Source: an uncultured Alphaproteobacteria bacterium (GTDB taxonomy: Bacteria > Pseudomonadota > Alphaproteobacteria > Rhizobiales > Xanthobacteraceae). Taken from it: a DNA stretch of 64,000 nt. The notes below the pieces were generated by a model. That model did not search any database and was not told the origin of the DNA. It worked only from the letters and a program-made list of their open reading frames with translations. Location of the stretch: contig CAVULJ010000009.1 of the NCBI GenBank assembly GCA_963742215.1, forward strand, positions 84,623 to 148,622, read 5' to 3'. Within the stretch, counting starts at the first letter, position 1. Each line of letters starts with the position of its first letter. This document shows positions 2,836-56,589 of the stretch, piece after piece. The position numbers and the translations under genes are program-made.

Positions 2836-3245
2836 ATAAGCGTCATCGTTCTCGCGGCGCGAACGCGCCCGAGTTTTGCCAAGCTATTCCCAAGAAAGCT
2901 CCTTCAAATGGGGGGAGATGGAGCGCCGGGAGGCGCCAAAGGTCTTGGGCCGCGCCACGCGAACGGATGTTACCACCCGCCCGCGCTTCGGGCGCGGCGC
3001 GCGCCACAGAACGATCCGCTTGCGCGAACCACCTGCTTCGGGCGCGCGGCGCCTCCCGGCGCTCCACCGCGGCTTTCGCCGGGCGGCCGGCCGCCCCGCG
3101 GGTACCGCACTCGCCCCACCGTCGGGCCTGCCTCCCGACGGCGCCCTTCATGAGCGAGATTCGCCGCTGTGTAACCGAAATGGTGACTTATGTCAATGCA
3201 AATGTGACGCATGGCGACAGCAGGCTTCTGCCGCGGGGCCGTGCC

Positions 3246-3260
3246 TTCCAATTTTTGGAA
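3246..3260. promoter_or_regulatory. Palindrome TTCCAA-N3-TTGGAA about 20 nt upstream of higB (candidate HigA operator)
   Basis: Perfect 6-bp inverted repeat seen directly. The operator role is inferred only from its position in front of an autoregulated-type TA operon. Confidence 0.35.
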
Positions 3261-3280
3261 TTTCGTGTCATGCTGCATGG

Positions 3281-3592
3281 ATGATCGTGTTCGGCAGGGA
3301 ATTGATCGAAGACTATCTTGCCGATCACGCCGGGCATAAAGGAATTAAGGCGGCACGATCGCAGTATGTAGCTTGGCTCGACATCGTGAGCCGCGCGCTG
3401 TGGCACAACCCGGAGGATGTGAAGGCGTCGTATCCGAAGGCGAGCATTCTCAAGGCCGGCCGGGTTGTCTTTAACATCAAAGGAAACGATTACCGCTTGG
3501 TCGCTCGCGTTCAATATCAGTCAGGCGTTTTGGCGATCCGGTTCTTCGGAACTCATGCCGAGTACGACAAAATCGATGCGGAGACCGTGTGA
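3281..3592 (+). CDS. higB: Type II toxin-antitoxin system HigB-family toxin
   Basis: 103-aa product ending ...RVVFNIKGNDYRLVARVQYQSGVLAIRFFGTHAEYDKIDAETV, the characteristic HigB_toxin C-terminal signature. Internal ATG 3281 of the listed longer ORF fits the family length. Confidence 0.85.
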   Translation: MIVFGRELIEDYLADHAGHKGIKAARSQYVAWLDIVSRALWHNPEDVKASYPKASILKAGRVVFNIKGNDYRLVARVQYQSGVLAIRFFGTHAEYDKIDAETV

Positions 3593-6695: not shown

Positions 6696-8166
6696 ATGAC
6701 GGAACAAACGACTGAAGCAGGCCACGAAACCAGACAACAAATCCGTCCCGATATCTGCGTCATCGGCGCCGGCGCGGGCGGGCTCGCGGCGGCCGCCGCG
6801 GCAGCGGCCTTCGGCGTCAATGTCGTGCTGATCGAAAACGGCGGCATGGGCGGTGCAAGCTCCAGTGCCGGCACGCTGCCGGCCAAGGCCTTGATCGCGG
6901 CGGCCGAGCGGGCCAACGCCTATCGCGACGGCGCACGCTTCGGGGTGAAGAGCGCGCGCTATGGCGTCGATTTCGCCGCGGTGCGCGCGCATGTGCGTGA
7001 CGTGCTCGCCGCGGTCGCGCCGGCGCAATCGCGCGAGCGTTTCAATGGCCTCGGAGTGCGCGTTATCGAGGGCGTCGGGCGTTTCCGCGATGCCGAGACC
7101 GTTGCCGTCAACGGCTTCGACGTCAAGGCGCGCCGCTTCGTGATCGCGACCGGCGGGTCGCCTGAACTGCCGCCGATACCGGGGCTGGCCGAAACACCGC
7201 ACCTCACCGCCGCGACCGTGTTCGAGCTTGCCGATTGTCCGCGCCATCTCATCGTCATCGGCGCCGGCGCGGCCGGTCTCGAACTGGCGCAGGCGTTTCG
7301 CCGCCTCGGCGCCGACGTCACCGTGCTCGAAGCGGCGGCGCCGCTTGCTGGCGAGGATCCGGAATGCGCGGGCGTCGTGCTCGACGCGCTCGCCCGCGAG
7401 GGCGTCGTCATCCGCGCCGGCGTGACGATCGCGCGGGTGCGGCGCGCGCTCGCGCGCGTGCAAGTCGATATCGTCACCGCGGCTGGCGGGCGAGACCGTA
7501 ACGGAAACGATCGAAGGCACGCACATCCTGGTCGCCGCCGGCCGGCGCCCGAACATGGAGGAGCTCGATCTCGACGCCGCCGGCATCGACTACGCACCCC
7601 GCGGCATCACCGTCAACCGCCGGCTGCGCACCAGCAACAAGCACGTCTATGCGATCGGCGAAGTAACGGGCGCGCCACCATTTGCGCACCTCGCCAATCA
7701 TCACGCCGGATTGGTGATCCGCAATGCGCTGTTCCGCACGCCGGTCAATGCGGATCGCCATGCCGTTCCGGCTGTGATCTGTACCGATCCCGAATTGGCT
7801 CAGGTCGGCATGACCGAAGACGAGGCGCGCGCGCATTCCGGCATCATCCGCGTGTTGCGCGCCTCTTACCGCGACAACGACCGGGCGCAGGCGACCGGAG
7901 CGACCAGCGGCCATATCAAGATCATCACCGACCGCCGGGGCGATATTCTCGGCGCCACCATCGTCGGCGCCGGCGCGACGGAAAATATCGCCGCCTGGGC
8001 ACTCGCCATAAACCAAAAACTGAATATCGACGCGCTCGCCGGTGTTATTGTGCCGTATCCGACCTATGCCGAGGTGGGAAAACGCGCCGCGATGACCTAT
8101 TTCACCCGTGGTTTGACCAGTCCGCTGGTCCGGCGCATCATAGGCTGGCTGCGTCGTTTTGGCTGA
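6696..8166 (+). pseudogene. FAD-dependent pyridine nucleotide-disulfide oxidoreductase family gene (Lpd/MerA/SthA-like), interrupted by one frameshift
   Basis: The N-terminal part (DICVIGAGAGGLAAA..., second Rossmann motif HLIVIGAGAAGLELA) is in frame 0 to about 7488. The C-terminal part (...ETVTETIEGTHILVAAGRRPNMEELDL...PYPTYAEV...) continues in frame +1. The switch lies in the G-run GGCGGGC at about 7485-7491. Confidence 0.75.
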
Positions 8167-11251: not shown

Positions 11252-12892
11252 ATGTCCTTTCTCCAGCTCGTTCGCAGCGAAATGCACGGCTCGATGCCGA
11301 AGCTGCTGCTCATGTCGAGCCTCGGCGGCATCAGCAACGCCTCGATCCTCGCCGCCATCAATACCGGCGTGCAGGACACCAGTAGCGGCGGCAAGCCTGG
11401 ATTGTGGTCGGCCACGCTTTTTCTGATCGCGCTGTTTCTGTTCATGAAGACACAGCAATACGTGACCATAACGGCGACCGCCGAGATCGAGGCCATCATC
11501 CACAAGCTGCGCACGCGGATGATGGATCTGATAAGGCGCTCCGAACTTCTGGAATTGGAACGGGTCGGCCGCGCCCGCATCGTCGCCTCGGTGACCAGCG
11601 ACACCGCGATCCTCACGCAGGCCAGCAACATGCTGTGCTTTACCGTGCAGGGCGCGGTGCTGATTTTCTTCGTCGGGCTTTATATCGCCTATCTGTCGAT
11701 GGCGGCGTTCCTGTTGACCGTCGTTATCTTTGCCGGCGCGGCGACGATCTTCCACTACAAAAATCGCCGTCTCGCCGAGCAAAAGGGCGAATCGGCGGCG
11801 TGGGAGCGCCGCCTGTTCGATCGGCTGATCGACTTCCTCGACGGCTTCAAGGAAGTGCGGCTCAACCGCGCCCGCAGCGACGCGCTGTACGAGGACGCAA
11901 TCGACGTCTCGAAGACCGCGGCCAACATCAAAATCCGCACCCAGGCCGAAACCTTCAAGATGATCGTGAGTACGCAGATTTCGATGTACATCCTGCTCGG
12001 CGCGGTGGTGTTCGTGGCCCCGAATCTGAGCGACTCGCTCGGCGGCGCGTCCATTGCCAAGACCACCACGGCACTGCTGTTTGTGGTCGGCGCCTGTTTC
12101 GGCCTCGTGCAATCGATCCCGATCCTGCTCAACGCCAATACCGCGGCCGACCGGATCGCGCGGCTGCAAGCGGCGCTGCAGGATACCGTCGTCGACGTGG
12201 CGCCGCTCGAAGTCACCGCGCCGCAGCGTTTCGAACGGATCGAGATGCACAATATCGTGTTCCGCTACGTCGACAAGTTTTCCGACACCGTGTTCAAGAT
12301 CGGACCGATCGATTTCACCCTGCAATCCGGCGAGCTTGTCTTCATCACCGGCGGCAACGGTTCGGGCAAATCGACGTTTTTGCGGGTGCTGTCGGGACTT
12401 TATCCGCCCGATTCCGGCGAGGTCACGCTCGACGGCATGCGCATCAACGACGCCAACCGCGACCATTATCGCGCGCTGATATCGGGGATTTTCTTCGACT
12501 ATCACCTGTTCCAGCGGCTCTATGGCATCCCGGACGCCGACACCGCCGAAATCGCCCGCCTGCTGGCGCAGTTCCGCCTGTCCGACAAGACGTCGCTGTC
12601 GAACGGCGAATTCCGCACGCTCGACCTGTCCGGCGGCCAGCGCCGCCGCCTGGCCCTGATCGTCAGCCTGCTGGAAAAGCGCCCGATTATGCTGCTCGAC
12701 GAATGGACGGCCGAGCAGGACCCGGAATTCCGCCGCAAATTCTATGACGAACTGCTGCCGGATATGATGCGGGCCGGGGCGACCGTCGTGGTGATCACGC
12801 ACGACGACCGCTATCTCGACGAGCTGCATTTGCCGGCGCGGCGCATCCGCATGGACGAAGGCCGTATTGTCGAAGAGCGGGCAATGGGCTGA
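11252..12892 (+). CDS. Fused permease/ATPase ABC exporter of the cyclic-peptide/siderophore-peptide exporter type (YojI/SyrD/PvdE-like)
   Basis: Six-TM N-terminal domain. NBD has Walker A GGNGSGKST, signature LSGGQRRRL and Walker B MLLDEWTAEQD. The ...DYHLFQRLYG... motif is typical of this subfamily. Confidence 0.85.
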   Translation: MSFLQLVRSEMHGSMPKLLLMSSLGGISNASILAAINTGVQDTSSGGKPGLWSATLFLIALFLFMKTQQYVTITATAEIEAIIHKLRTRMMDLIRRSELLELERVGRARIVASVTSDTAILTQASNMLCFTVQGAVLIFFVGLYIAYLSMAAFLLTVVIFAGAATIFHYKNRRLAEQKGESAAWERRLFDRLIDFLDGFKEVRLNRARSDALYEDAIDVSKTAANIKIRTQAETFKMIVSTQISMYILLGAVVFVAPNLSDSLGGASIAKTTTALLFVVGACFGLVQSIPILLNANTAADRIARLQAALQDTVVDVAPLEVTAPQRFERIEMHNIVFRYVDKFSDTVFKIGPIDFTLQSGELVFITGGNGSGKSTFLRVLSGLYPPDSGEVTLDGMRINDANRDHYRALISGIFFDYHLFQRLYGIPDADTAEIARLLAQFRLSDKTSLSNGEFRTLDLSGGQRRRLALIVSLLEKRPIMLLDEWTAEQDPEFRRKFYDELLPDMMRAGATVVVITHDDRYLDELHLPARRIRMDEGRIVEERAMG

Positions 12893-12918: not shown

Positions 12919-14254
12919 ATGGCGAAGTATCCCGAGTATCTCGATGAGCTGCCGCCGGTGCCGCATAGCCGGCGATTGCGGCACTATCTCATCCGCCATC
13001 TGCCGGGCGTTTCGGTCCTGCTGCTGGCGGCGATGCTCGCCACCGTGGTGCTGTGGCCGTACATGATCATCACGGTGCCCAGCGGGCGCGTCGGCGTGCT
13101 GTGGAAGCGCTTCAACGGCATCGATCTTTACTGCTTTTGCTGGGTCGGCCGCGGCACCGTGCTCGACCCGCGGGAAGCCCGCGAGGAAGGCCTACATCTG
13201 ATCTGGCCGTGGGACAGGTTGTTCCTCTACGATTTACGGCTGCAATCCTCCACGCAAACCTACAACGCCATCTCGAAGGACGGCGTGAGCGTGACCGCGC
13301 AGATCAGCGTGCGCTACCAGCTTCTGCACAACTCCGTCGCCGTGCTGCACAAATTCATCGGTCCGGGCTATCTGGATTCGGTGGTGATCCCCGAAATCGG
13401 TAGCCAGGCGCGGCAAGTGATCTCGCAATACACGGCGCAAGAGGTCTATACCTCGCGCGAGTCCGATCCAGAAGGAAATCCGCGAGAACGCGCAAAGGAG
13501 CCTGGCGGCCAACCTGAACAAATTGGTGCAGCCCGAGGCGATGGAGCAGCCCGATCCCAAGCACTACGACGACTTCCTGCAAGCCGCGATTCAAATCCTC
13601 GACACGCTTGTGCTGTCGATCGAATTGCCGCCCGACATCGTGGCGGCGATCAATCGGCAGACCGAGCAGTATTACATGATCCAGGAGTACAAATTCCGCG
13701 TCAGCGTGAAGCCGAGGAATCCAAGCGCAAACAGATCGAGGCGGACGGCATCGCCGCGTTCCAGAAAACGGTCAGCCAGGGGATTTCGGAATCCTATCTG
13801 CGCTGGCGCGGCATCGAGGCGACGCTGATGCTGGCGCAGTCGCCCAACGCCAAGATCGTGATCGTCGGCTCGGGCAAGGACGGCCTGCCGATCATTCTCG
13901 GCAATGTCGACAGCTGGCGCCGCACCCACCGCCGCCCCGGGAGCGATCGCGCCGGGCGCTCCGGCGAACCCGGCCGCCACCACGCCGCCGAATCCGCCGC
14001 CGCTGCCGAACGGCAACGGCGCGCCGGCTGGACCCAAGCCGCCGCCCGGAACGTCGGGCGAAGCGACGCCGCCGGCATCGGACAAAGCCGCCGGCGCGGC
14101 GCCCTCCACCGTGACCGCGGAAACGGACAACACCGCTTCCTCGGCGGGCCCGCTCGACGTCCCCGGCGTTCGCTCGATCATGTCGCGAATTTCCGGCGCC
14201 TTGCGCGCCGGCGCGGATCTGACGTCGCCCGGCGAAACAAAATCCGGACAATAG
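12919..14254 (+). pseudogene. SPFH/band-7 (prohibitin-family) membrane protein gene with three frameshifts
   Basis: The band-7 sequence runs in frame 1 (…SKDGVSVTAQISVRYQL…EVYTSRES). It jumps to frame 2 (IQKEIRENAQRSLAANLNKLVQPEAMEQ…EYKFRVS) at about 13464, back to frame 1 (EAEESKRKQIEADGIAAFQKTV…ILGNVD) at about 13706, and to frame 2 (Pro/Ala-rich tail, stop 14254) at about 13908. Confidence 0.7.
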
Positions 14255-14263
14255 CGGAGAATT

Positions 14264-14824
14264 ATGGTGACCGACCGGATGCGATCAGGCCGTGCCCCGC
14301 AGCGCTCTCAGTGGCGCGTGTTGCGGGCCGAGATGCGGTTTGTCGTGCTCACCGCCTGCCTTTTCACCATTATCGCAACCCTGGTCGGCGGCCATCTCTA
14401 CGGCCGGTATTTGGCCTCGCTCGAGCTGGGTGGCCGCGAAAACGCCATCGAGCAGCTCCGCGCCGAAAGCCAGAAGCTCAAAACCCATGCCGACGATCTC
14501 AGCGCGCAAGCCACCGACCTGCAGGTCAAGCTCGACAGGGCGCAGGCCGCGCTGCACGCGATCACGCCTTCGGACAACGCCTACAACCTCGTTCCCAATC
14601 AATCGCTGATCGTCGCCGACGGTCATTTGACCGTCGGCATGGTCGGCGCGCCCGGCAATGAGGGCGTCACGCTCGACATCAACGGCAGACAGCAGACGCT
14701 CGCCGCCGGTCAAATCGTGAGCGTCGCGCCCGATCCGTCCACCACCTGTCAGGTGGGCGTGCAGTCGTTCGATATGTTCAAAGCCGTGCTGACGGCAACG
14801 TGCTCCGGAGCGAAGACGCGGTAA
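14264..14824 (+). CDS. Hypothetical membrane-anchored coiled-coil protein
   Basis: One TM helix (FVVLTACLFTIIATLVGG), then a coiled-coil-like stretch (IEQLRAESQKLKTHADDLSAQATDLQVKLDRAQAAL). Lies 9 nt after the SPFH gene. No family recognised. Confidence 0.5.
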   Translation: MVTDRMRSGRAPQRSQWRVLRAEMRFVVLTACLFTIIATLVGGHLYGRYLASLELGGRENAIEQLRAESQKLKTHADDLSAQATDLQVKLDRAQAALHAITPSDNAYNLVPNQSLIVADGHLTVGMVGAPGNEGVTLDINGRQQTLAAGQIVSVAPDPSTTCQVGVQSFDMFKAVLTATCSGAKTR

Positions 14825-19524: not shown

Positions 19525-19830
19525 CTATTTGCCGGCGCCGATCAGGGTATCGACGGCCTTCATGAGCGTTACGTCTTGATTACGCAGGCAGTAATCCTCC
19601 ACCTCGCCCACATCATCTTTCAAGGCATTGGCATCGAACACGGTGCTGCCGCGTTTGCCGTTATAGTAACCGCTGAGCCAATACGCGATGTTGGTGGGCA
19701 CGGTAATTGTGTCGTGCAGGAATTCCTTGCAGGTGATCTTGGATACGTCGAGCGTCACTTGCGCGGAGGCAGGTGGCGCGGCGACAAGACAGAAGAACAA
19801 TGCCGCCACAATAAGATTTGTGTTTGTCAT
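19525..19830 (-). CDS. Small periplasmic HdeA/HdeB-like protein
   Basis: Signal peptide ...APPASAQ, then KITCKEFL...YWLSGYYNGKRG...DYCLRNQD. The TC(K/E)(E/D)F...W..G...C layout recalls HdeA-family proteins annotated in rhizobia. This is from memory. Confidence 0.45.
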   Translation of the reverse strand: MTNTNLIVAALFFCLVAAPPASAQVTLDVSKITCKEFLHDTITVPTNIAYWLSGYYNGKRGSTVFDANALKDDVGEVEDYCLRNQDVTLMKAVDTLIGAGK

Positions 19831-19865
19831 GATCCGCGCCCTTACGTTGATTGCGCTCTGCGTGG

Positions 19866-20186
19866 CTATTTGCCGGTGCCGAGAAGGGTTTCGGCGGCTT
19901 TCATAACCGCCACGTCTTGATTGTGCACGCAGTAGAGCTTCACTGCGGCTTCATAATCCTGCAAGCCATTGACATTGATCACGGTGTTGCCGCGAATTCC
20001 GTTGTAGTAGCCGTGGAGCCAGAGTGCGATTTGGTCGGGCTCGAATAGCGTACTGGTCATGAATTCCTTGCAGGTGATTTGGGATACGTCGATCATCATT
20101 TGCGCGCGGGCGAAACAGGCCGTCATAAGGCAAAAAAGCAGTCCCGCTATAATGGACTTTATTCTTGTCACGATACCTGCTCCCAA
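19866..20186 (-). CDS. Small periplasmic HdeA/HdeB-like protein, tandem paralog
   Basis: Same layout as the neighbour (QITCKEFM...LWLHGYYNGIRG...LYCVHNQDVAVMKAAETLLGTGK), 35 nt apart. Confidence 0.45.
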   Translation of the reverse strand: MGAGIVTRIKSIIAGLLFCLMTACFARAQMMIDVSQITCKEFMTSTLFEPDQIALWLHGYYNGIRGNTVINVNGLQDYEAAVKLYCVHNQDVAVMKAAETLLGTGK

Positions 20187-20329
20187 GGTGATTATACTTT
20201 CTACGTGTCACGGATGGTAATCCCGTTGGGCCGACGCAGCCATCCCGTATGGCCCAACGTGGACGTTTGAGAACTGTCCCTCAATATCTGCTTTTGGGGT
20301 GAGGCCGGACACTACGTTTTCAGGGTTGT

Positions 20330-31153: not shown

Positions 31154-31225
31154 TCCGATACCTCACTGCCCGTTAGCATCGGCATGATAGGTGATCGAAT
31201 AGAGATGCTATTTGCTGCGGTGCAT

Positions 31226-32738
31226 GAGTCCGCTTATGGCCCTTAGCGGACGCGCCGGTTGATGACAGCCGCGGCAGCTTTCGGAGGCAAAGATGGGGTA
31301 ATCGGCCGGCGTTCTTGTGGATAGCTAAAGATTGTGGGTGCTGCGCTTCAGGCTGATGGTTCAACGAGGTCCGTGTGCACGGCCTCAAGCATCAGAAGGA
31401 GAAGCGCAGCATGGACTATTTTGCTGGACTGGACGTATCGGTCAAGGAGACCAGCGTCTGCATTGTGGATGACGCGGGCAAGATCGTTCGGGAAGTGAAG
31501 GTCGCGAGCGAACCCGAAGCGTTGTTGGCGGTGCTGAGGAACCCCGCCTACCGCTTCAAGCGGATTGGATTGGAAGCCGGACCATTGTCGCAATGGCTGT
31601 TCAGCGGTCTCGCCGAAGCCGAGTTACCGGCGGTCTGTGTTGAGACACGGCACATGCGAGCAGTGTTGAAGGCGCAGATCAACAAGACGGACCGCAACGA
31701 CGCTCGCGGTATCGCACAGATGATGCGGGTGGGACTTTACCGCCCGGTGCATGTGAAGACGTTACGCAGTCAAAAACTGCGGATGCTGCTGACCCATCGC
31801 AAGCTACTACAGTCGAAGGCCATTGCCGTCGACAATGACCTGCGCGGGACTTTGCGTAACTTCGGTCTCAAGGTAGGCATGGTGGGGACGGTGAAGTTCG
31901 AGGCACGCATCAAGGAGCTGGTCGAGAACTTGCCCGACCTGGCTGTGCTGGTCGAACCGCTGCTTGTCGTCCGGCGGGTGCTTCGCGAGCAGTTTGTCAT
32001 CCTACATCGTCGTTTGCTGGCCATCGTGCGAGACGACGAGGTGTGCCGGCGCCTGATAACGACCCCCGGGGTCGGCCCCGTGGTAGCGCTGACCTATCGC
32101 GCCACCGTCGACGTACCGGCTCGGTTCCGTAAATCCAAGGCAGTCGGTGCCGTGTTTGGGCTGACGTGTTCCAAGTATCAATCCGGCGAGATCGATCGAA
32201 GCGGCAGAATATCACGCTGCGGAGATGAGATGATGCGGGTCATGCTCTACGAAGCAGCTCAGAGCATGCTGCGTTCGAAGAAATGGTCTTGGCTCAAAGC
32301 CTGGGCGATGCAGATCGCCAGGCGCCGCGGGATGAAGAAGGCGATCGTGGCGCTGGCACGCCGACTGGCCGTGATCATGCACCGCATCTGGGTTGACGGC
32401 ACCGAGTTCCGCTGGACCCGGGAACACGTCGCGGCGGCAGCATAAAAACCGTGCAGGATCAATTACGATAGGAGAACACTCGAGCTCCACCCAGCGGTGG
32501 AATGATGTCCCTCGCGGGACGATGGATGAGGTGAGTTCGCATGTCCGCTTGGACCTACCGTTCGTCTGACGGCAACGCCGCGGTAAAGATTGTTCCGCCT
32601 CGTCTTCGAATCCCATGATGGAAGGGCCTTGGTGCCGATTCCGAAGAGAAGCACGAGCCCGTGAGCGACATCGACACTGCAGCGGCGAAAAGTCTGAAAG
32701 TGCTTGACCCCAAACGGCCGATTAGAGAAGCGGACATC
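31226..32738 (+). mobile_element. IS110-family insertion sequence, copy B
   Basis: Same 1,513-bp block as copy A, offset by exactly 5,730 bp, in the same orientation. Confidence 0.85.
31411..32445 (+). CDS. IS110-family transposase (DEDD recombinase), 344 aa
   Basis: Translation is identical to the copy A transposase. Confidence 0.9.
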   Translation: MDYFAGLDVSVKETSVCIVDDAGKIVREVKVASEPEALLAVLRNPAYRFKRIGLEAGPLSQWLFSGLAEAELPAVCVETRHMRAVLKAQINKTDRNDARGIAQMMRVGLYRPVHVKTLRSQKLRMLLTHRKLLQSKAIAVDNDLRGTLRNFGLKVGMVGTVKFEARIKELVENLPDLAVLVEPLLVVRRVLREQFVILHRRLLAIVRDDEVCRRLITTPGVGPVVALTYRATVDVPARFRKSKAVGAVFGLTCSKYQSGEIDRSGRISRCGDEMMRVMLYEAAQSMLRSKKWSWLKAWAMQIARRRGMKKAIVALARRLAVIMHRIWVDGTEFRWTREHVAAAA

Positions 32739-35702: not shown

Positions 35703-35842
35703 GATGGCGTTTCCTCTCGATAGGCGTTCAATCAAACTCGCGGCGGGAGCTGAGCAGATCAAAGCCTGCGATCTTTCCCGCAACACCATGACCGAGGCAA
35801 TGGGTTTCACCTCGTTCAGGGCTGTTCGTGCCATTTGACAAC

Positions 35843-35863
35843 ATATTGCCGATATGACAATAT
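35843..35863. promoter_or_regulatory. Inverted repeat ATATTG-N9-CAATAT directly before the marR-type gene (candidate operator), preceded by TTGACA
   Basis: Seen directly in the 167-bp divergent intergenic region. TTGACA lies at 35835-35840. The regulatory function is inferred. Confidence 0.3.
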
Positions 35864-35869
35864 AGAACC

Positions 35870-36334
35870 ATGAACATCGAAACCAGACCGCAATCCATCG
35901 TTCCGATTGTCGTGGCGGACATCTACGAGCTGGCCGGTCGCTTGCGCGAATCCGGCGAGACCATCGCCAAAACCGTCGGCCAGACCCAGGCGCGCTGGCA
36001 GGTGCTGAGCGCAGCCTCCGGAGCGCCGCAGACCGTGCCGCAGATCGCCCGCGTGCTCGGCGTTACCCGGCAGAACGTCCAGCGCATCGCCGATCTGTTG
36101 GTCGCCGAAGGCTTGGCGCAGTACCAGGACAATCCGGACCACCGGGTGTCGCCGCACCTCATTCTGACCCGGCGCGGCCGCGCCGCGTTCGATCAGCTGA
36201 TGAAGGCGGCGGCCGGATTCCACGCCCGGCTGGCGCGCAAGCTCACCCCTTCCGACGCCGCTTCGTTGCAGCGCGGACTGCGTCGGCTGCTCGAAGCGCT
36301 GACGGAAACCGACCCCCTCAACCCCAGCAAGTAG
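35870..36334 (+). CDS. MarR-family transcriptional regulator
   Basis: Winged-helix core …QARWQVLSAASGAPQTVPQIARVLGVTRQNVQRIADLLVAEGLA…DHRVSPHLILTRRG…. Confidence 0.85.
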   Translation: MNIETRPQSIVPIVVADIYELAGRLRESGETIAKTVGQTQARWQVLSAASGAPQTVPQIARVLGVTRQNVQRIADLLVAEGLAQYQDNPDHRVSPHLILTRRGRAAFDQLMKAAAGFHARLARKLTPSDAASLQRGLRRLLEALTETDPLNPSK

Positions 36335-36345
36335 GAGACCCAGCC

Positions 36346-36741
36346 ATGTTCGATATCGACACTATTGCCGATTGCATGAAGGCGAGCTTCGCCAACACGC
36401 CGTTTCCCAAAGTCGTCGAGCGTCTCGCCGGCGCCGGCGTGAAGTCCTACACCGCCGATCTGGTGAAACTGCGCAAGACCTATTACGGCGCCGAGCGCGA
36501 AGCCCATGACGAGGCGATGCCGCTAGAGAAGGCGCCGGCCATTGCCGTGGCGTTCGATCCGCCCGGCGTCGCCGCAACTGTAAAAACCATCCAGCGCGGC
36601 GAGATCGGCTACGCCGAGTTCCTGCGCCACATCATGGCGTCGGGCTGTTCGCACTACGAGGTATTCTTCGACGGCCGCAAGGCGATGTATTTCGGCCGCG
36701 ACGGCGAGTTCTATACCGAGCCGATCCCGGCGAAGAAGTAA
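36346..36741 (+). CDS. DUF1398 domain protein
   Basis: …FPKVVERLAGAGVKSYTADL…IQRGEIGYAEFLRHIMASGCSHYEVFFDGRKAMYFGRDGEFY resembles DUF1398 (YbcV-like) as I remember it. Confidence 0.65.
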   Translation: MFDIDTIADCMKASFANTPFPKVVERLAGAGVKSYTADLVKLRKTYYGAEREAHDEAMPLEKAPAIAVAFDPPGVAATVKTIQRGEIGYAEFLRHIMASGCSHYEVFFDGRKAMYFGRDGEFYTEPIPAKK

Positions 36742-36747
36742 GCGGCG

Positions 36748-37575
36748 TTACTCGGCCGCCGCCGCCGTTTCGGCCAGCACCGGCGCCTTCTCGTTGGTAC
36801 CGGATTCCGGCAGCAGCGCTGCGGCCTTCAGGCCGGCCTGGACTTTTGGCACCGTCGTCTTCACGTCGGTGATCGGCAGGCCATGGGTCGGCGCGATGGT
36901 TTTGACGCCAAGGCGCTCGATCAGATGGTCGAGCCGGTCGCAATAGACGTTCATGTCGGCGAACTTGGTCCAGAACAGAGCGAGGTCCGCGAAGGTCGCC
37001 GATACGTCCGGCAGATCGAGCGAGACGGCTTCCTCGGCGACGAGACCGCAATGGCCGTCCTCGTGATAGTGGCTATAGGCAAAGCCGTCGCCTGGAAACA
37101 GCACGCGCTCCTTGGTGTCAAAACCCCACCAGGTGGTGCGCAGGTCGCGGATCACCGGTTCGACCGCCATCAGCGTGCGGCCGCCGAGCGCGATCTCGTC
37201 GCCCTCCTTCATCCACCGCATGCGGTGTTCGTATTGCGGGAAGGCGAGGTGATAATCGCTGACATCGCCGACCAAGAGCGCATCGGGGAAGGATTTGAGG
37301 ATGCGGCCAAGCCCCCCGCAATGCGGCGTCTCCTGGTGGGTGACGAACAGATATTTGAGCGGCGCCACACCTTGCGCAAACAGCTCGTTCAGGTGCCGTT
37401 CGATGACCGGAAAATCTTTCGGATGACCCGTCTCGACCAGGATCGAGGCGTCTTCGCCGGCGACCAGGAAGGCGGCGTTATAGCCGTGATAGACCTTGCC
37501 CTTGTGCCGCTGCAGCAGACAATCGCCGATCCAGAACACGCCAGGCGCGATCTCGCGGGGCATTTTTCCGGCCAT
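36748..37575 (-). CDS. MBL-fold protein of the di-iron (flavodiiron/ODP-like) type
   Basis: …NAAFLVAGEDASILVETGHP… and the motif THQETPHCGG (an H-x-E-x-x-H variant of the H-x-E-x-D-H di-iron motif), plus downstream His/Asp residues (…FPGDGFAYSHYHEDGHCG…). Confidence 0.65.
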   Translation of the reverse strand: MAGKMPREIAPGVFWIGDCLLQRHKGKVYHGYNAAFLVAGEDASILVETGHPKDFPVIERHLNELFAQGVAPLKYLFVTHQETPHCGGLGRILKSFPDALLVGDVSDYHLAFPQYEHRMRWMKEGDEIALGGRTLMAVEPVIRDLRTTWWGFDTKERVLFPGDGFAYSHYHEDGHCGLVAEEAVSLDLPDVSATFADLALFWTKFADMNVYCDRLDHLIERLGVKTIAPTHGLPITDVKTTVPKVQAGLKAAALLPESGTNEKAPVLAETAAAAE

Positions 37576-37578
37576 AAC

Positions 37579-38508
37579 TCAGCGCTCCTCGTCGCGGGTG
37601 ACGTAGCGCGACACCGCCACGCTTTTGTCGCAAGCTTTCAAAAACTCATCCAGCATCCGGTAGTGCCGCGCCACTACGTTGCGGCCGCGCAGGATGCAGC
37701 CATAGCCGGGCGCGATGGTCTCGATGTCGTATTTGTCGAACACGTTGCCGATGCCGCGGCGGATCGAGTCGGTCGGCGCGCCTTCGAGCCACCAATAGCG
37801 CGTGTTCAGCATGAACGAGCGAACGTCGGAGAGCGACGTTGAGTCGTTGTCCGATGCGGTAACGATCCACGGACCGTTCTGGCTGTCGCGCCAGACATGG
37901 GTGAACATATCGGATGAGAACAGCGTTCGCGTCGCGCGGTCGTAGAGCCAGCGTGTGGCGATCAGCCGGATCGGCGCCTGCATGACGTCGATCGCCCGGC
38001 CGCCCTTGCCAAGCTCGATCGTGTCGGCCCTGGTGACCGCGGTGACCTTCATCGATTTGAGGATGTCGCGGCCTCCCGCCCTGGCGCCGAAATCGAACCA
38101 CAAAGCCGCATCGATATTGCTGGTGTAGCAGGTCTCGACGTTGAAATGGCCGGCAAAACTCTCGACGTTGTTGATCGACATGAATTCGTTGAGCCGCAGC
38201 GGGAACATCGACAGCGGCAGTCCCGGTGCGATCAGCTGCTCGATCTGGGTCCGGATCGTCCGCTCGTCCTTGCCGAAGCCGGTATCGATCAGCATGGCGG
38301 CGTCGCTTTGCGTCAACAGATAGCTGTTGGCCACTGAAAATCCCCGGGCGCTTCCCGGATAGGAGCTGACCCGGCCGTCAAGCGCGAAGGGATTTTGCAG
38401 CGCGTAGAGCCGATCGTCCGCCAGCGAGGCGATGCCGCCGGTAAAGCCTTGCGGCCCGCGCGTTTGCTTATGCGATTCTTGCGGCGGGTATTGGGTCACT
38501 ATCGACAT
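37579..38508 (-). CDS. Divergent MBL-fold-like protein lacking the metal motif (paralogous partner of the downstream gene)
   Basis: …SYLLTQSDAAMLIDTGFGKD… has an MBL-like beta-strand pattern, but the H-x-H-x-D-H position reads FPLRLNEFMSINN. There is a 3-nt gap to the next gene and a 46-nt gap after lanM. Confidence 0.5.
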   Translation of the reverse strand: MSIVTQYPPQESHKQTRGPQGFTGGIASLADDRLYALQNPFALDGRVSSYPGSARGFSVANSYLLTQSDAAMLIDTGFGKDERTIRTQIEQLIAPGLPLSMFPLRLNEFMSINNVESFAGHFNVETCYTSNIDAALWFDFGARAGGRDILKSMKVTAVTRADTIELGKGGRAIDVMQAPIRLIATRWLYDRATRTLFSSDMFTHVWRDSQNGPWIVTASDNDSTSLSDVRSFMLNTRYWWLEGAPTDSIRRGIGNVFDKYDIETIAPGYGCILRGRNVVARHYRMLDEFLKACDKSVAVSRYVTRDEER

Positions 38509-38554: not shown

Positions 38555-41500
38555 TCATTCCCAGATCAGCACATTGGGCAGCGACCAATCGATCTGCCGC
38601 AGCAGCGTGTAGCCGACGCCGGAAAGCCCGCGGAACAGACCGAGATTGAATTGGCGCTTGCCGCTGTTCCAGCGGTAGTCGCCGGTTGCAGCGGCACGCG
38701 CCAGGACGGCGATGAGGCGCTGCGAGGCGAGTGCGCGCAGATCGTCGCGGCTGAGTGCGTCGGCCGCCTCGCAGAAAAATTCAATGCCGCCGAGCGTGCC
38801 GCAACACAGCGTGTCGACCGGTGTCGGCTGGTTTCGCTCGACGCCTTCGACCGCGTTGCCGATATCCGCAGCCAGCGGCTTGGCATCTCGCTTCGCATTG
38901 GCGCCGCCGCGCTTGACCACGGCGAGACGCGCCAGGCCGATGCCGGCGGCGCCGTGGCACCATTGGCACGGCCAATGCGGTTTCTCGGCGCGCAGATCGG
39001 GCCAATTGTGGCGCCCGGCGTCGTAGCTTGAATCTTCAAAAGCGATGCATGCGGACGCGGCCACCGCAAAATCGTCGCGCCCCGTCGCCGCTGCCAGCGC
39101 GGCGAGCGCATAGGCAAAGCCCGCCGCGCCATGCGACATGCCGTTGAGCGCATGGGACGGCTTGCGCGCCCGAGCCCTGTCCGAGCCAGGTGCGGCGTCC
39201 CTCGGCTCCGAGCTGCGATTGCGCCAACAGATGTTCGCCGCATTTCGTCGCGCGAAAAAGCACGTCGCCGGATTTGGTATCGCGATAAAGCCGCAGCAGC
39301 GCTAGGATCGCGCCGGCGCTGCCGCCCATCACGTCGAGCTGCTTGTCCGCCGCAATGAGCTCGTCGGTAAAGAGTCGCGCCGCCGCATCCGCATCGGCGA
39401 GCAAGATCGGCATTGTTGAGGCATTTCGCCGTCACGAGCCAAGCGCATAGACGATCGAGCCGAGCCCGGTGGCGCCGCCAATGCCGAGCGCCCGCGCCAT
39501 GCCGCGCGGCGTTGCGGCTTTTCAGGCTCTTGCGCAGATGCGACAGCGCGGCGAGCGCCAGCTCGCCCGACGCGGTGTTGCCCGTCACCGCCGCATGCGC
39601 GGCAAGAAACACCGCGATGCCGCTAGTGCCGTTGTAGAGATCCGGGCCGAGGCAGACGAGCTGGAAAACCTCGGAATCGCCGAGCCAGTCGAGGCCGATC
39701 CAGGCGGCGCCCGGTCCGCGGCGAATGGCGTAACCCGACATTTCCGCGGCGATGTTGTCGGCTTCGGCGGCGAACGCTGCTTTGGCGCGGCGCGAGCTGC
39801 GCACGCGCCGGCACGTCGTGCTGGCGGCGCGGCGGCTGCGCCGGCGGCCGCATTTGGCGTGACCGAATTGGTATTCTCGCGGATGACCTCGATCTGCCAG
39901 GCGATCTCGCGCTTCATCGAGGTTTTGCAGACGCGCGCGCGGCGCGATCCAGTCCCGGAATCGCGGCGGTGCGGACGGCAATGCCGGCCGCGTCGGCAAT
40001 CCCGCCGCCATCGCTTGGTGAAACGAAATGCGGCACGTTGAGCGCCAACAGCGCGTCGCGTTCGGCGCGGTGCAACGGCCATAGCGGATCGAAATCCTTG
40101 TCCCATTGCGACAGCCTGGCGACGAAGTCGGCTTGCGCGGACCAGATCGCGCCGTCATCCATGCTGCGGTGATTTTTCAGCCGCTGCAGCAGCATGTAGT
40201 AAAAACGGGTAGGGCGGATGACTTTGCGGACCGCAAGCCCGGCAAAGCCGCCGAGCAGCGCGTCGGGCGTCGCTGCTCCATTGCGACAGGAATTTCGCGT
40301 AATCGGCAAAGCCCGAGACGAAGCTTTCGATGTGATCGCCGAACTTGGCGTAACGGCCATCGACATGCGGCAGATTGGTATTGGTCTCGCCCGCTTCTTT
40401 GATTCTCGCCGGCCGCATCGCGTCGGTGTTGATATCATTCCAGGCGATGACGGTCCGTTCGCCCCAGTCCGCGGTCATGCCGCCCATGGCGAACACCTGG
40501 TTGTCCACCGAGCGGCCGTAAGCGGGCAAGCAGCCCGACCGTCATCACCGAGTTGCCGATAATGTCCATGGCGGCATCGAAGGCCTCGCCCCTCGGCTTC
40601 CTGGGCTTTGTGTTCCTCGGCGCTCGGCTGCAGGATGGTTTCCAGATCGACCGGCACCGGCTGATCGCCGGCCGCGATCATGTTCTCCTGGTGCATGTCG
40701 GTCGTGGCGAAGACGTGGAATAGCGCGAGGAGGGCGCCGGCACGGCGGAAAAATCGCGCGCATGCCGAAGCGTCGGCGCAGCCGGCATGGGCGATGAATT
40801 CGGTCCAGCCATAGCCGTCGCGCGCGATTGCGCGCGCCGCCCGCAGCGCGACCGGTGGATTGGCGCCGTTGAGCCGCTCGATCAGAGCGTGCCAGGCGAC
40901 GTCGAGCCGCAAATCCTTCGGCTTGTAGGCGACGCGCCCGCCGTCGGCGAAAGTCACGATCAGGACCGCATGGCCGCCATTGTGCGGATCGGAAAGGCCG
41001 CCCTCGATTTTGGCGACGCCGCCGTCGGCGGTGGATCGCAGAATATCGTGCCGAAGCAGCGCCAGATCGGCATCCAGCCGCAGCACGAATTCGCGCGACG
41101 TGTCGATCCATTGCCGCGTGACGGCCGCGATGAGCCGCAACAGCACCGGCTTGTCTTCGAACAGCAGCCGCAAGCCGCCGGCTTTCATGGCGGTGACGAA
41201 TTGATCGTAGCCTGCGGGATTTGCAGCGGGACTTGCAGCGCCCTCCGTTGCGCCGGCGCCGCGCGCCTGGGCGAAACGTTCGTAGATCGCGGGAGCGCAG
41301 AGCTCCGATAATTGCACCAGCAGCGACTGGTGAAGATCGGCGCGCGCGGATTGGCGGAGCCTGTCGATGACGCGGGCGTCGAGTCCGGACCAAAGCCGCG
41401 CGCCGGCTTGTTCGACGACCGGCGCGAGCAGGTGTTCAAATGCTACCGGTGCGGTCACCGGCCTGGCGTCGCCGCCAAGACGTCTATTCGAGCTCTGTAG

Positions 41501-41818
41501 TGCCGCTTCGATCCAAACTGCATCGTCGAGCCATGCCGGCGCGGCAACGCCGGCGCTGCGGCGGACCGCGCCAAAGCGCTCATTGAGCGTCGCCATCGAC
41601 AGCGCATCGCGGTCAAGCCGCCGCGCAAACAGCGGCTCGTCGCGGGCGGCGGCGGACCGGTGCCACGCGGCAAGACGCCGCGCGAAAAGCGCGTTGTCGT
41701 CGCTCTCGCCGGGTGCGGCTTCGAACGCGTCCGAAACGAGCTCGTCGATGGTGGCGGCGCGCATGCCAAAGCGCTCAAAAAAGCCGTCTCGGCCGCAGCC
41801 TCCGATTAGGGGTGTCAT
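38555..41818 (-). pseudogene. lanM: Class II lanthipeptide synthetase (LanM) gene disrupted by about ten frameshifts
   Basis: The dehydratase part is intact in one frame (41818 to about 40590), including HVFATTDMHQENMIAAGDQPVPVDLETI. The rest is spread over three frames (…AFDAAMDIIGNSVMTVGLL / PAYGRSVDNQVF… / …RKVIRPTRFYYMLLQRL… / …REIAWQIEVIRE… / …DLYNGTSGIAVFLA… / …GGATGLGSIVYAL… / …DVMGGSAGAIL…). The LanC-like end carries NGMSHGAAGFAYAL, WCHGAAGIG and CCGTLG zinc-ligand motifs. Confidence 0.85.
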
Positions 41819-42119
41819 TCATCGTCGCAGAGCGTTTCCATCCATGTCCGGGCGGCCCTGTGCTTATCCTCGGCCGGGGGCCTCGATTGCTGCGTAAAGT
41901 GGCGGCACCGGGGCACCTCCGACGGCCGTTTTAGGGACCAAAAAGGCTGCCGGGATCGCCCGATTATCTCCAGAAATCAGCCACCTGTCACAATAGCGGA
42001 CGCACTTTACACCCACCGCGGCCGATGATTTAATGGGCACCTGGCGGGGGGTTTTTTAGCGAATTTCTCGTCGTGCCTAGTGACTGCCGGCGCCGCTGGC
42101 GAACAAAAGGAACAGAGTT

Positions 42120-42278
42120 ATGAAAGACATCAACATCGACCAGAGGGAAGAAGAGATCCTCATTGACGTTTCCGACGCGGCGCTGGAAGCAGCGGCGGGT
42201 TCGGTAAAGGAGAAGGCTGGGGCCTTCACGCTCTCGTTCTGCTCGGGCCTGGACACCTGCCCCGGTATCCGCTCCTAA
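42120..42278 (+). CDS. Candidate class II lanthipeptide precursor (LanA-like), 52 aa
   Basis: Not in the ORF track. AAGGAA lies 8 nt before the ATG. Product is MKDINIDQREEEILIDVSDAALEAAAGSVKEKAGAFTLSFCSGLDTCPGIRS: an acidic leader ending in a G-S/A-G junction and a Cys/Ser/Thr-rich core. Divergent from lanM and followed by a hairpin. Confidence 0.6.
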   Translation: MKDINIDQREEEILIDVSDAALEAAAGSVKEKAGAFTLSFCSGLDTCPGIRS

Positions 42279-42342
42279 CTGGTCGCAAGGCCGGCTTGGG
42301 TTTCTGATTTCGCCCGGATTGTCGGACTGATTTAGTTTCCGA

Positions 42343-42380
42343 CGAGGCGCCGGGAGATTCCGGCGCCTCGTTCTCTATTT
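42343..42380. terminator. Hairpin terminator between the LanA-like ORF and the convergent amidohydrolase gene
   Basis: CGAGGCGCCGG-GAGATT-CCGGCGCCTCG, a perfect 11-bp stem, followed by TTCTCTATTTTA. Confidence 0.6.
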
Positions 42381-42494
42381 TATCGCGCTTTTTTGTCCTC
42401 CAGCGGTAAATTTTTCGCTGCCGCTAAGGCTCTAATGTTCGCGCCCCCATCGCTGCGTCCGCGTCGCCACAACACCTGCGTCACCACATCTGCG

Positions 42495-56158: not shown

Positions 56159-56589
56159 GGCTCCCTCGATGCCGGACCGGAGGAATTCATTAGACTTAAT
56201 CAATAGTTCTTTTATCCACACGGATCAATGCGTTCGCACGCGCGGGTCGACGCGGCACATCGCTCCCCATGGAACCGTTGGGCGGCGCCCTATGGTAGCG
56301 GCTTGATATCAAAGTTATCTGTGATTTCAAGCATTTAAGGGGAGAACTGACGCCGCTGCCAGGCGTGGAAGGAATATTTGACCGTGGCTGGAACTGCTAG
56401 GGGATTAAACTTAACCAACATTTTACCCATCAATTTTGACACAATGCCGCAAGAATTCGCTAAGATATTGTGAACGTGAGGGGGAAGACCCCCGACAAAA
56501 AACCAATCCGTCGACGAACGGTTCATTCCGATGTCGTGCGCCCAGAAATCAAGGATCAGGGACGCGACGCCGGAAATGGGAGACGTAGT

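Follow-up and report, generated by a model that had tools for sequence, protein, structure and literature searches.

A probable class II lanthipeptide precursor gene, lanA, lying divergently from a frameshifted ProcM-like lanM in DNA of an uncultured Xanthobacteraceae bacterium

In classical class II lantibiotics, such as lichenicidin (LicM2), cytolysin (CylM), lacticin 481 and mersacidin, a bifunctional LanM, comprising a DUF4135 dehydratase and a LanC-like cyclase, is encoded beside a small precursor whose leader is acidic and whose core contains Cys, Ser and Thr. In the prochlorosins and synechococsins of marine picocyanobacteria (ProcA-ProcM and SyncA-SyncM), extra precursor genes are scattered in the genome away from lanM, the ProcA/SyncA leader ends in D/E-E-L-E-x-x-x-G-G (PMC10783134), and the zinc site of the synthetase is built from three cysteine ligands, read as CCG, the mark of ProcM-like, substrate-tolerant synthetases (PMC8524650, PMC10783134). 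Here, a stretch of 64,000 nucleotides from an uncultured Alphaproteobacteria bacterium of the Xanthobacteraceae (contig CAVULJ010000009.1, positions 84,623 to 148,622; hereafter, the window) was considered for an open reading frame (ORF) at 42120-42278. Judged from comparative sequence analysis, this ORF is very probably the precursor gene (lanA) of a class II lanthipeptide, one member of a large unannotated family from soil Hyphomicrobiales/Xanthobacteraceae that is served by a ProcM-like LanM. The locus resembles the classical systems in its pairing of a bifunctional LanM with a small, acidic-leader precursor and the prochlorosin system in its CCG zinc site, in a family leader ending D-E-x-L-E-x-x-x-G-(S/T) and in the presence of further family members away from lanM. 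The two genes at its centre are as follows:

42120-42278, + strand: lanA, predicted 52-amino acid (aa) class II lanthipeptide precursor, assigned from homologues, invariant residues, selection (pN/pS) and ring motif
38555-41818, - strand: lanM, predicted class II lanthipeptide synthetase of the ProcM-like CCG type, assigned from matches of its fragments to TIGR03897, DUF4135 and LANC_like

The lanA ORF opens with an ATG at 42120, closes with a TAA stop codon at 42276-42278 and encodes MKDINIDQREEEILIDVSDAALEAAAGSVKEKAGAFTLSFCSGLDTCPGIRS, a translation identical to that quoted in a first-pass annotation of the window, in which a lanthipeptide precursor had been proposed from the letters of the DNA. 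Residues 1-27/28 (42120-42203) would serve as leader and residues 28/29-52 as core. The acidic leader ending described in that annotation is read at residues 19-28 (D19-A-A-L-E-A-A-A-G27-S28), and its tally of two Cys and six Ser/Thr in the last 24-25 residues was reproduced in the last 25 (Cys at 41 and 47; Ser/Thr at 28, 37, 39, 42, 46 and 52). The divergent lanM-type gene that it had placed some 300 bp away is likewise present, with the longest lanM ORF starting at 41818, at a distance of 301 bp. As 155 ORFs of at least 30 aa are found within 12 kb here, an ORF the size of lanA is nothing special by itself; it is set beyond chance by 296 homologues, by a fixed position beside lanM in relatives and by a ratio of non-synonymous to synonymous polymorphism (pN/pS) of 0.27.

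The 296 homologues came from a search of 5.8 billion proteins and share 70-100% identity with the lanA peptide, most of them 70-90% along their full length; every one is unnamed or annotated as 'hypothetical', and none contains a Pfam domain. When 1.84 billion representatives of clusters at 50% identity were searched with a profile, 841 clusters reached E <= 1e-3, of which 115 reached E <= 1e-10. Far from being rare, the family has many members and occurs commonly in soil metagenomes. No meaningful match to the peptide was obtained in NCBIfam or Pfam (none at E <= 1), the NCBIfam lantibiotic precursor models included, and a tblastn search of plasmids with the peptide gave no match.

In an alignment of lanA homologues (A1), leader residues S18, D19, A21, E23, A24-A26 and G27 are invariant (SD.ALEAAAG), as are core residues T37, F40, C41, S42, G43, L44, D45, C47 and P48 (T..FCSGLD.CP). 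Across the family, the leader ends in D-E-x-L-E-A-A-A-G-(S/T), with the residue following DEALEAAAG being Ser in 62, Thr in 41 and Ala in two of 120 members, and the core follows the pattern T-x3-C-(S/T)-x4-C-P. The residues from which two rings could be built, [ST]-x3-C-[ST]-x4-C (Thr37, Cys41, Ser42 and Cys47), are found in all 120 close homologues examined and, among 149 representatives of clusters at 50% identity, in 133; most of the exceptions look truncated or frameshifted. The pattern survives changes in the residues between, as in YTLYFCTALDLCPGP and YTLGACSGLSVCPA. In a few members (P0235, P0241, P0252 and P0255), the same leader is joined to an unrelated core; such modularity of leader and core is typical of the precursors of ribosomally made, post-translationally modified peptides (RiPPs).

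Among 16 orthologues, pN/pS was 0.27 over the whole gene and lower in the core (0.17) than in the leader (0.48), and lanA is under purifying selection. Insertions and deletions (indels) between orthologues are multiples of three, with the window and its nearest relative, locus L002 (approximately 90% DNA identity), differing by 9 nt in frame, and the phase of GC content at third codon positions (GC3) agrees with the lanA frame. In two far longer proteins, P0140 (1,116 aa) and P0158 (1,954 aa), the leader part of the profile (positions 10-35) was matched in 6 and 10 stretches, respectively; these may be repeats of an acidic, Ala-rich leader-like motif or else an artefact of low complexity.

When 185,579 species genomes were scanned, 37 loci of the lanA family were obtained, all in metagenome-assembled genomes (MAGs), mostly from soil or peat. 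The loci are for the most part labelled Xanthobacteraceae, Hyphomicrobiales or uncultured Alphaproteobacteria, the labels of three others being Candidatus Binatia, Pseudomonadota and uncultured proteobacterium. In 22 of the 37, lanM lies divergently some 300 bp upstream of the peptide gene, and these 22 are every genome locus with a peptide close to that of the window. Wherever a close homologue is accompanied by enough flanking DNA, lanM is found at the same distance and in the same orientation, and in most loci it is intact (approximately 1,075 aa; range 1,064-1,133 aa). The same lanA-lanM layout is seen in three metagenome contigs (L038-L040) retrieved by exact look-up, and second lanA copies stand in tandem in L006 and L008. 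The comparisons with syntenic loci proposed in the first-pass annotation, namely whether the ORF is conserved opposite intact lanM genes and whether these pair instead with a different precursor, both came out in favour of the precursor reading: the ORF is conserved, and no unrelated precursor was seen beside these lanM genes.

The LanM of L002 is intact (1,082 aa) and scores 730 bits on TIGR03897 (cut-off 304), with both DUF4135 and LANC_like being present. The fragments of the window lanM jointly cover the TIGR03897 model, each alone falling below the cut-off, and carry the WCHG and CCG motifs. When aligned with the solved LanM structures of LicM2 and CylM, the L002 protein presents C-C-G where LicM2 reads C-H-G, a difference from the CHG zinc site of the classical enzymes; DTLCCG.LG is read in all 22 LanM sequences that carry this motif, including the window fragment. 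By this CCG zinc site in the cyclase domain, the partner LanM is of the ProcM-like type. Soil and peat metagenomes contain more than 1,300 relatives of the enzyme.

In relatives, three genes lie convergent with lanM and abut its 3' end; they encode an ATP-binding cassette (ABC) transporter of approximately 550 aa, an SPFH/Band 7 protein of approximately 440-500 aa and a third protein, of approximately 185-200 aa, that combines a single membrane helix with a coiled coil. This trio accompanies lanM in 11-15 loci as well as in L038-L040, with a homologue of the third window protein standing beside lanM in 15 loci. The window contains the following counterparts:

11252-12892, + strand: ABC exporter of the cyclic-peptide type (YojI/SyrD-like), no C39 peptidase domain, assigned from TIGR01194 and synteny
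12919-14254, + strand: SPFH/Band 7 protein gene with at least three frame switches, whose intact homologue in relatives adjoins the ABC gene and lanM
14264-14824, + strand: 186-aa membrane-anchored coiled-coil protein without family assignment, third gene of the trio

Compared with L015, the three window products are 80% (ABC), 63% (SPFH) and 47% (coiled-coil protein) identical. Like YojI/SyrD-type exporters, the window ABC protein matches TIGR01194 ('cyclic peptide export ABC transporter') over its full length and above the curated cut-off (325.9 bits; cut-off 286.2), and in Pfam it matches only ABC_tran and related ATPase-type families (AAA_21 and SMC_N). Unlike those exporters, it belongs with a lanM-lanA pair and with SPFH and membrane coiled-coil proteins. 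The order and orientation of the window genes (trio +, lanM -, lanA +) are the same as in relatives, with approximately 23.7 kb (14825-38554) being inserted between the trio and lanM. The exporter had been set aside in the first-pass annotation as lying 30 kb off; this view is not upheld, since its orthologue adjoins lanM in relatives and the gene at 11252-12892 is, as such, assigned to the lanA system. On linkage, the transporter would export the lanA peptide.

The inserted stretch contains two copies of an IS110-family transposase gene (25490-26712 and 31220-32442, + strand; 362 aa; DEDD_Tnp_IS110 and Transposase_20), in direct orientation, 5,730 bp apart and identical over at least 300 nt. 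Following lanM are two genes of the MBL-fold ODP family (36748-37575 and 37579-38508, - strand), which look co-transcribed with lanM because they share its strand and are separated by gaps of only 46 nt and 3 nt. The pair is common only to the window and L002; a tailoring role is possible, if unsupported. Next to it, in the region 35718-36777, a MarR-type regulator ORF (35870-36334) and a 131-aa ORF (36346-36741) are missing from the otherwise collinear L002.

Signals for the expression of lanA were also seen in the intergenic region and beyond the stop codon:

42006-42034, + strand: promoter-like site for lanA, TTTACA (42006-42011), 17 nt, TTTAAT (42029-42034)
42035-42119, + strand: conserved 5' leader region of lanA, 85 nt, with GGCGGGGGG-TTTT, AATTTCTCGTC and GCCGGCGCCGCTGGCGAAC
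42107-42112, + strand: ribosome-binding site AAGGAA, 7 nt before the ATG, GGA core invariant in alignment A2
42341-42382, + strand: intrinsic terminator of lanA, 14-bp stem, 4-nt loop and T-rich tail
41963-41991, - strand: promoter-like site for lanM, GTGACA, 17 nt, GATAAT, back to back with that of lanA

Across 12 loci (alignment A2), some 180 nt upstream of the lanA ATG are conserved at the nucleotide level, although the LanM proteins encoded there are only 55-60% identical. Both hexamers of the lanA site are invariant or nearly so, which suggests that TTTACA-17-TTTAAT acts as the lanA promoter, and the promoter-like region of lanM is conserved as well. The promoter and 5' elements are found in all lanM-linked copies and are missing from most unlinked ones. 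The AAGGAA had been correctly recognized in the first-pass annotation, its spacing from the ATG being 7 rather than 8 nt, and the strong hairpin reported there is present at 42341-42372, with 10 G-C pairs in its stem (-48.3 kcal/mol; z = -2.95). In the 5' region, no Rfam family scored above threshold and no covarying RNA structure was detected (five weak pairs; covariation term +0.34). Because no such structure was found, protein binding is the likelier explanation, and the 85-nt region may be the binding site of a regulator.

Overall, the proposed lanA is a small gene by lanM, encoding a leader with a double-glycine-type end (GS) and a core of Ser/Thr and Cys capable of ring formation. In the mechanism envisaged, the acidic leader (residues 1-27/28) would dock on LanM, which would phosphorylate and eliminate Thr37 and Ser42, and perhaps also the non-conserved Ser39 and Thr46. 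Cys41 and Cys47 would then be added by the same enzyme, yielding two small rings side by side, of which 37-41 would be a methyllanthionine and 42-47 a lanthionine. This assignment of Thr37-Cys41 and Ser42-Cys47 is suggested by the conserved spacing, and small i to i+4 and i to i+5 rings, as in classical class II lantibiotics, are plausible in this core. The peptide would be exported via the YojI-type ABC transporter together with the SPFH and membrane coiled-coil proteins. Because the linked ABC transporter has no C39 domain, leader removal would fall to a separate protease, which is not among the genes found and would cut after G27 or S28. The lipid II-binding motif of mersacidin-type peptides is T-x-S/T-x-E/D-C. 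This motif was considered for the lanA core and rejected, the acidic residue of the S-G-L-D-T-C ring being out of register and absent in S-G-L-S-V-C subtypes.

Several observations weigh against this reading or set the locus apart from known systems. The putative cleavage site is G-S/T and not G-G, the last leader residue thus departing from the Gly of the prochlorosins. When the leader was compared with curated families (Nif11, NHLP and lantibiotic precursor models), no match was obtained at E <= 1; at 27-28 aa, it is unlike the prochlorosin leader, with only the last ten residues or so resembling the motif. Conservation is higher in the core than in the leader, opposite to the situation in prochlorosins, and the dominant lanA core is nearly invariant rather than hypervariable, other cores being confined to a few members. 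No leader protease for lanA was found and, in the linked ABC transporters (546-552 aa), no C39 peptidase, the window not having been scanned whole for this domain; the linked transporter is accompanied by an SPFH protein, a further difference from prochlorosin systems, as are the soil and peat Hyphomicrobiales hosts. No LanT with C39, LanFEG or LanI was present among the lanM neighbours checked in the window and in relatives. In 11 loci with divergent family members, lanM is not found within 8 kb. Finally, the window lanM is unreadable as sequenced, owing to 12 frameshifts. These points notwithstanding, the lanthipeptide-precursor reading is supported by conservation of the gene beside lanM and by retention of the ring residues and leader motif.

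The frameshifts call for an explanation of their own. The reading frames of lanM and the SPFH gene are interrupted, as sequenced, such that neither is translatable over its full length and the neighbouring LanM could not mature the peptide. To call lanM not intact, as implied in the first-pass annotation, understates the damage: relative to the intact L002 gene, 11 one-base insertions and one 2-base deletion are found, all within 1.4 kb (39161-40587), an odd pattern, and intact LanM proteins trace the window gene through at least seven frame changes. In the SPFH gene, which is intact in relatives, the frame switches at approximately 13466, 13702 and 13914-14054, where the GC3 phase changes too, and a 580-aa ORF stays open by chance.

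The explanation to which we give an even chance is that the source assembly introduced the frameshifts seen in lanM and the SPFH gene, probably through locally low coverage or an unpolished long-read consensus in a strain-variable accessory region, in which case the system of the organism itself would be intact and working. Once the one-base insertions are removed, lanM presents no in-frame stop codon and, against L002, a ratio of non-synonymous to synonymous substitution (dN/dS) of 0.28 and a dS of 0.24, within the range of its neighbours (0.18-0.31). Because the substitution pattern in lanM still looks selected, either very recent decay or assembly error is indicated. Within the patch of indels, identity to L002 is approximately 0.90, at least as high as elsewhere in the gene, such that the indels came without the substitutions of neutral decay. 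Moreover, 11 of the 12 indels are +1 insertions, and in natural bacterial pseudogenes deletions tend to predominate. Such assemblies are indeed subject to frameshift errors, given that in the long-read contig L040 both the ABC gene and lanM are split, with the same genes being intact in the near-identical L038 and L039, which contain the same peptide gene; lanM is also split in the long-read MAGs L005, L012, L018 and L019. Against an assembly error stands the observation that the breaks fall on exactly two genes of one system, which random error would not favour, and that the insertions are not in homopolymer runs. Frameshift errors across the whole window were considered and rejected, on grounds that count against an assembly error as well: the four flanking genes shared with L002 (approximately 3 kb) carry none, and other regions that look fragmented turned out to be distinct small genes (a pair of DPBB paralogues, a pair of HdeA paralogues and a response regulator).

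Genuine recent decay, with lanM and the SPFH gene being young pseudogenes, lanA an intact but orphaned relic and no mature lanthipeptide being made, is a real possibility, if one that we hold to be somewhat short of probable. The restriction of the frame breaks to two system genes, with the other 60 kb looking intact, is what decay would predict, and the cluster has been split by the approximately 23.7 kb that include the two identical IS110-family copies. The dN of lanM (0.067) is also somewhat above that of its neighbours (0.033-0.053), and, at the indel density of lanM, a 159-nt ORF would escape about half the time. Set against this are the clustering of the indels and their being nearly all +1 insertions, the patch showing neither an excess of substitutions nor a stop codon, as well as the intact promoter, ribosome-binding site and terminator of lanA. 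No intact LanM closer than approximately 87-90% aa identity was found with which the indels could be dated. On balance, assembly error is slightly favoured over recent inactivation. As the cluster is possibly dead or mis-assembled, annotation pipelines should not call a working gene cluster here without a check of the reads.

It is very unlikely that the peptide is a small protein, or the substrate of another enzyme such as the MBL-fold/ODP pair, with its proximity to lanM being incidental. Divergent family members without a nearby lanM do exist, as noted above, and ODP-family genes do trail lanM at 36748-38508 in the window and in L002; yet the latter are restricted to these two loci, the association of close homologues with lanM is fixed in distance and orientation wherever flanking DNA suffices, and the Thr/Ser and Cys that a lanthionine synthetase requires are precisely the residues that do not vary. 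Some of the unlinked copies share a MAG with lanM-linked ones (L024 with L001, L028 with L006 and L033 with L008), and the unlinked copies stand beside housekeeping genes, no other RiPP enzyme having been found next to them. The use of another modifying enzyme by these paralogues was considered and rejected, their neighbours being H+-pyrophosphatase, FabH, MerR, thiolase, patatin, TctC and transposase genes. Still, because lanM is lacking within 8 kb in the 11 loci, some family members may act without LanM. One divergent subtype, ISDAALELAAAIVRDRTASLTIAFCSGLDECPHH, found in L024-L027 (at approximately 7225-8130), always lies directly downstream of a MerR-family regulator, in a conserved neighbourhood (H+-pyrophosphatase and FabH) that lacks lanM within 8 kb.

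That lanA is a chance ORF in GC-rich DNA or a non-coding RNA element can be dismissed: short ORFs are very common here and an antisense ORF (42077-42256) overlaps the gene, but the pN/pS value, the indels in multiples of three, the GC3 phase, an amino acid pattern kept at 40-50% identity across the 841 clusters and, for RNA, the lack of an Rfam match in effect refute this reading on comparative grounds.

If lanA is the precursor gene that it very probably is, its absence from annotation points to a gap, in that gene callers and curated libraries miss a family of at least 841 sequence clusters. It would also extend ProcM-like systems from marine cyanobacteria to uncultured soil Xanthobacteraceae, offer a leader much shorter than that of the prochlorosins that could serve in engineering, and put forward the ABC, SPFH and coiled-coil set as a candidate accessory module. 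A literature search, with subscription journals outside its reach, found no report of the lanA family, of a lanM-SPFH pairing or of an ABC/SPFH/coiled-coil combination with lanM-lanA, and the search for lanthipeptides in Xanthobacteraceae, Bradyrhizobium or Rhizobiales, or for ProcM-like enzymes in Alphaproteobacteria, returned nothing on the lanA family. A bolder proposal, speculative and on present evidence unlikely to hold in full, is that the locus is the founding example of a very common soil lanthipeptide, in which a two-ring core nearly invariant across hundreds of Xanthobacteraceae lineages would be installed by a ProcM-like, three-cysteine LanM, a minimal 27-aa leader would be processed without a C39 peptidase, a YojI-type ABC transporter, SPFH scaffold and membrane coiled-coil protein would form a new export/immunity module, and control would be exerted via the conserved 180-nt promoter/5' region. 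Were this true, such conservation of the core would speak for a physiological or signalling role rather than that of an arms-race antibiotic.

Elsewhere in the window, tandem paralogues are found at 1778-2629 and 19528-20207 (two DPBB, RlpA-like, and two HdeA-family genes), and a HigB-type toxin domain at 2840-3589. Lastly, a giant ORF (56464-63999, + strand) of more than 2,512 codons runs past the end of the window; it contains, at 58696-62577, nine tandem copies of a 429-nt unit (143 aa) that are 99% identical, and it probably encodes a large, repeat-rich protein that is secreted or displayed at the surface.

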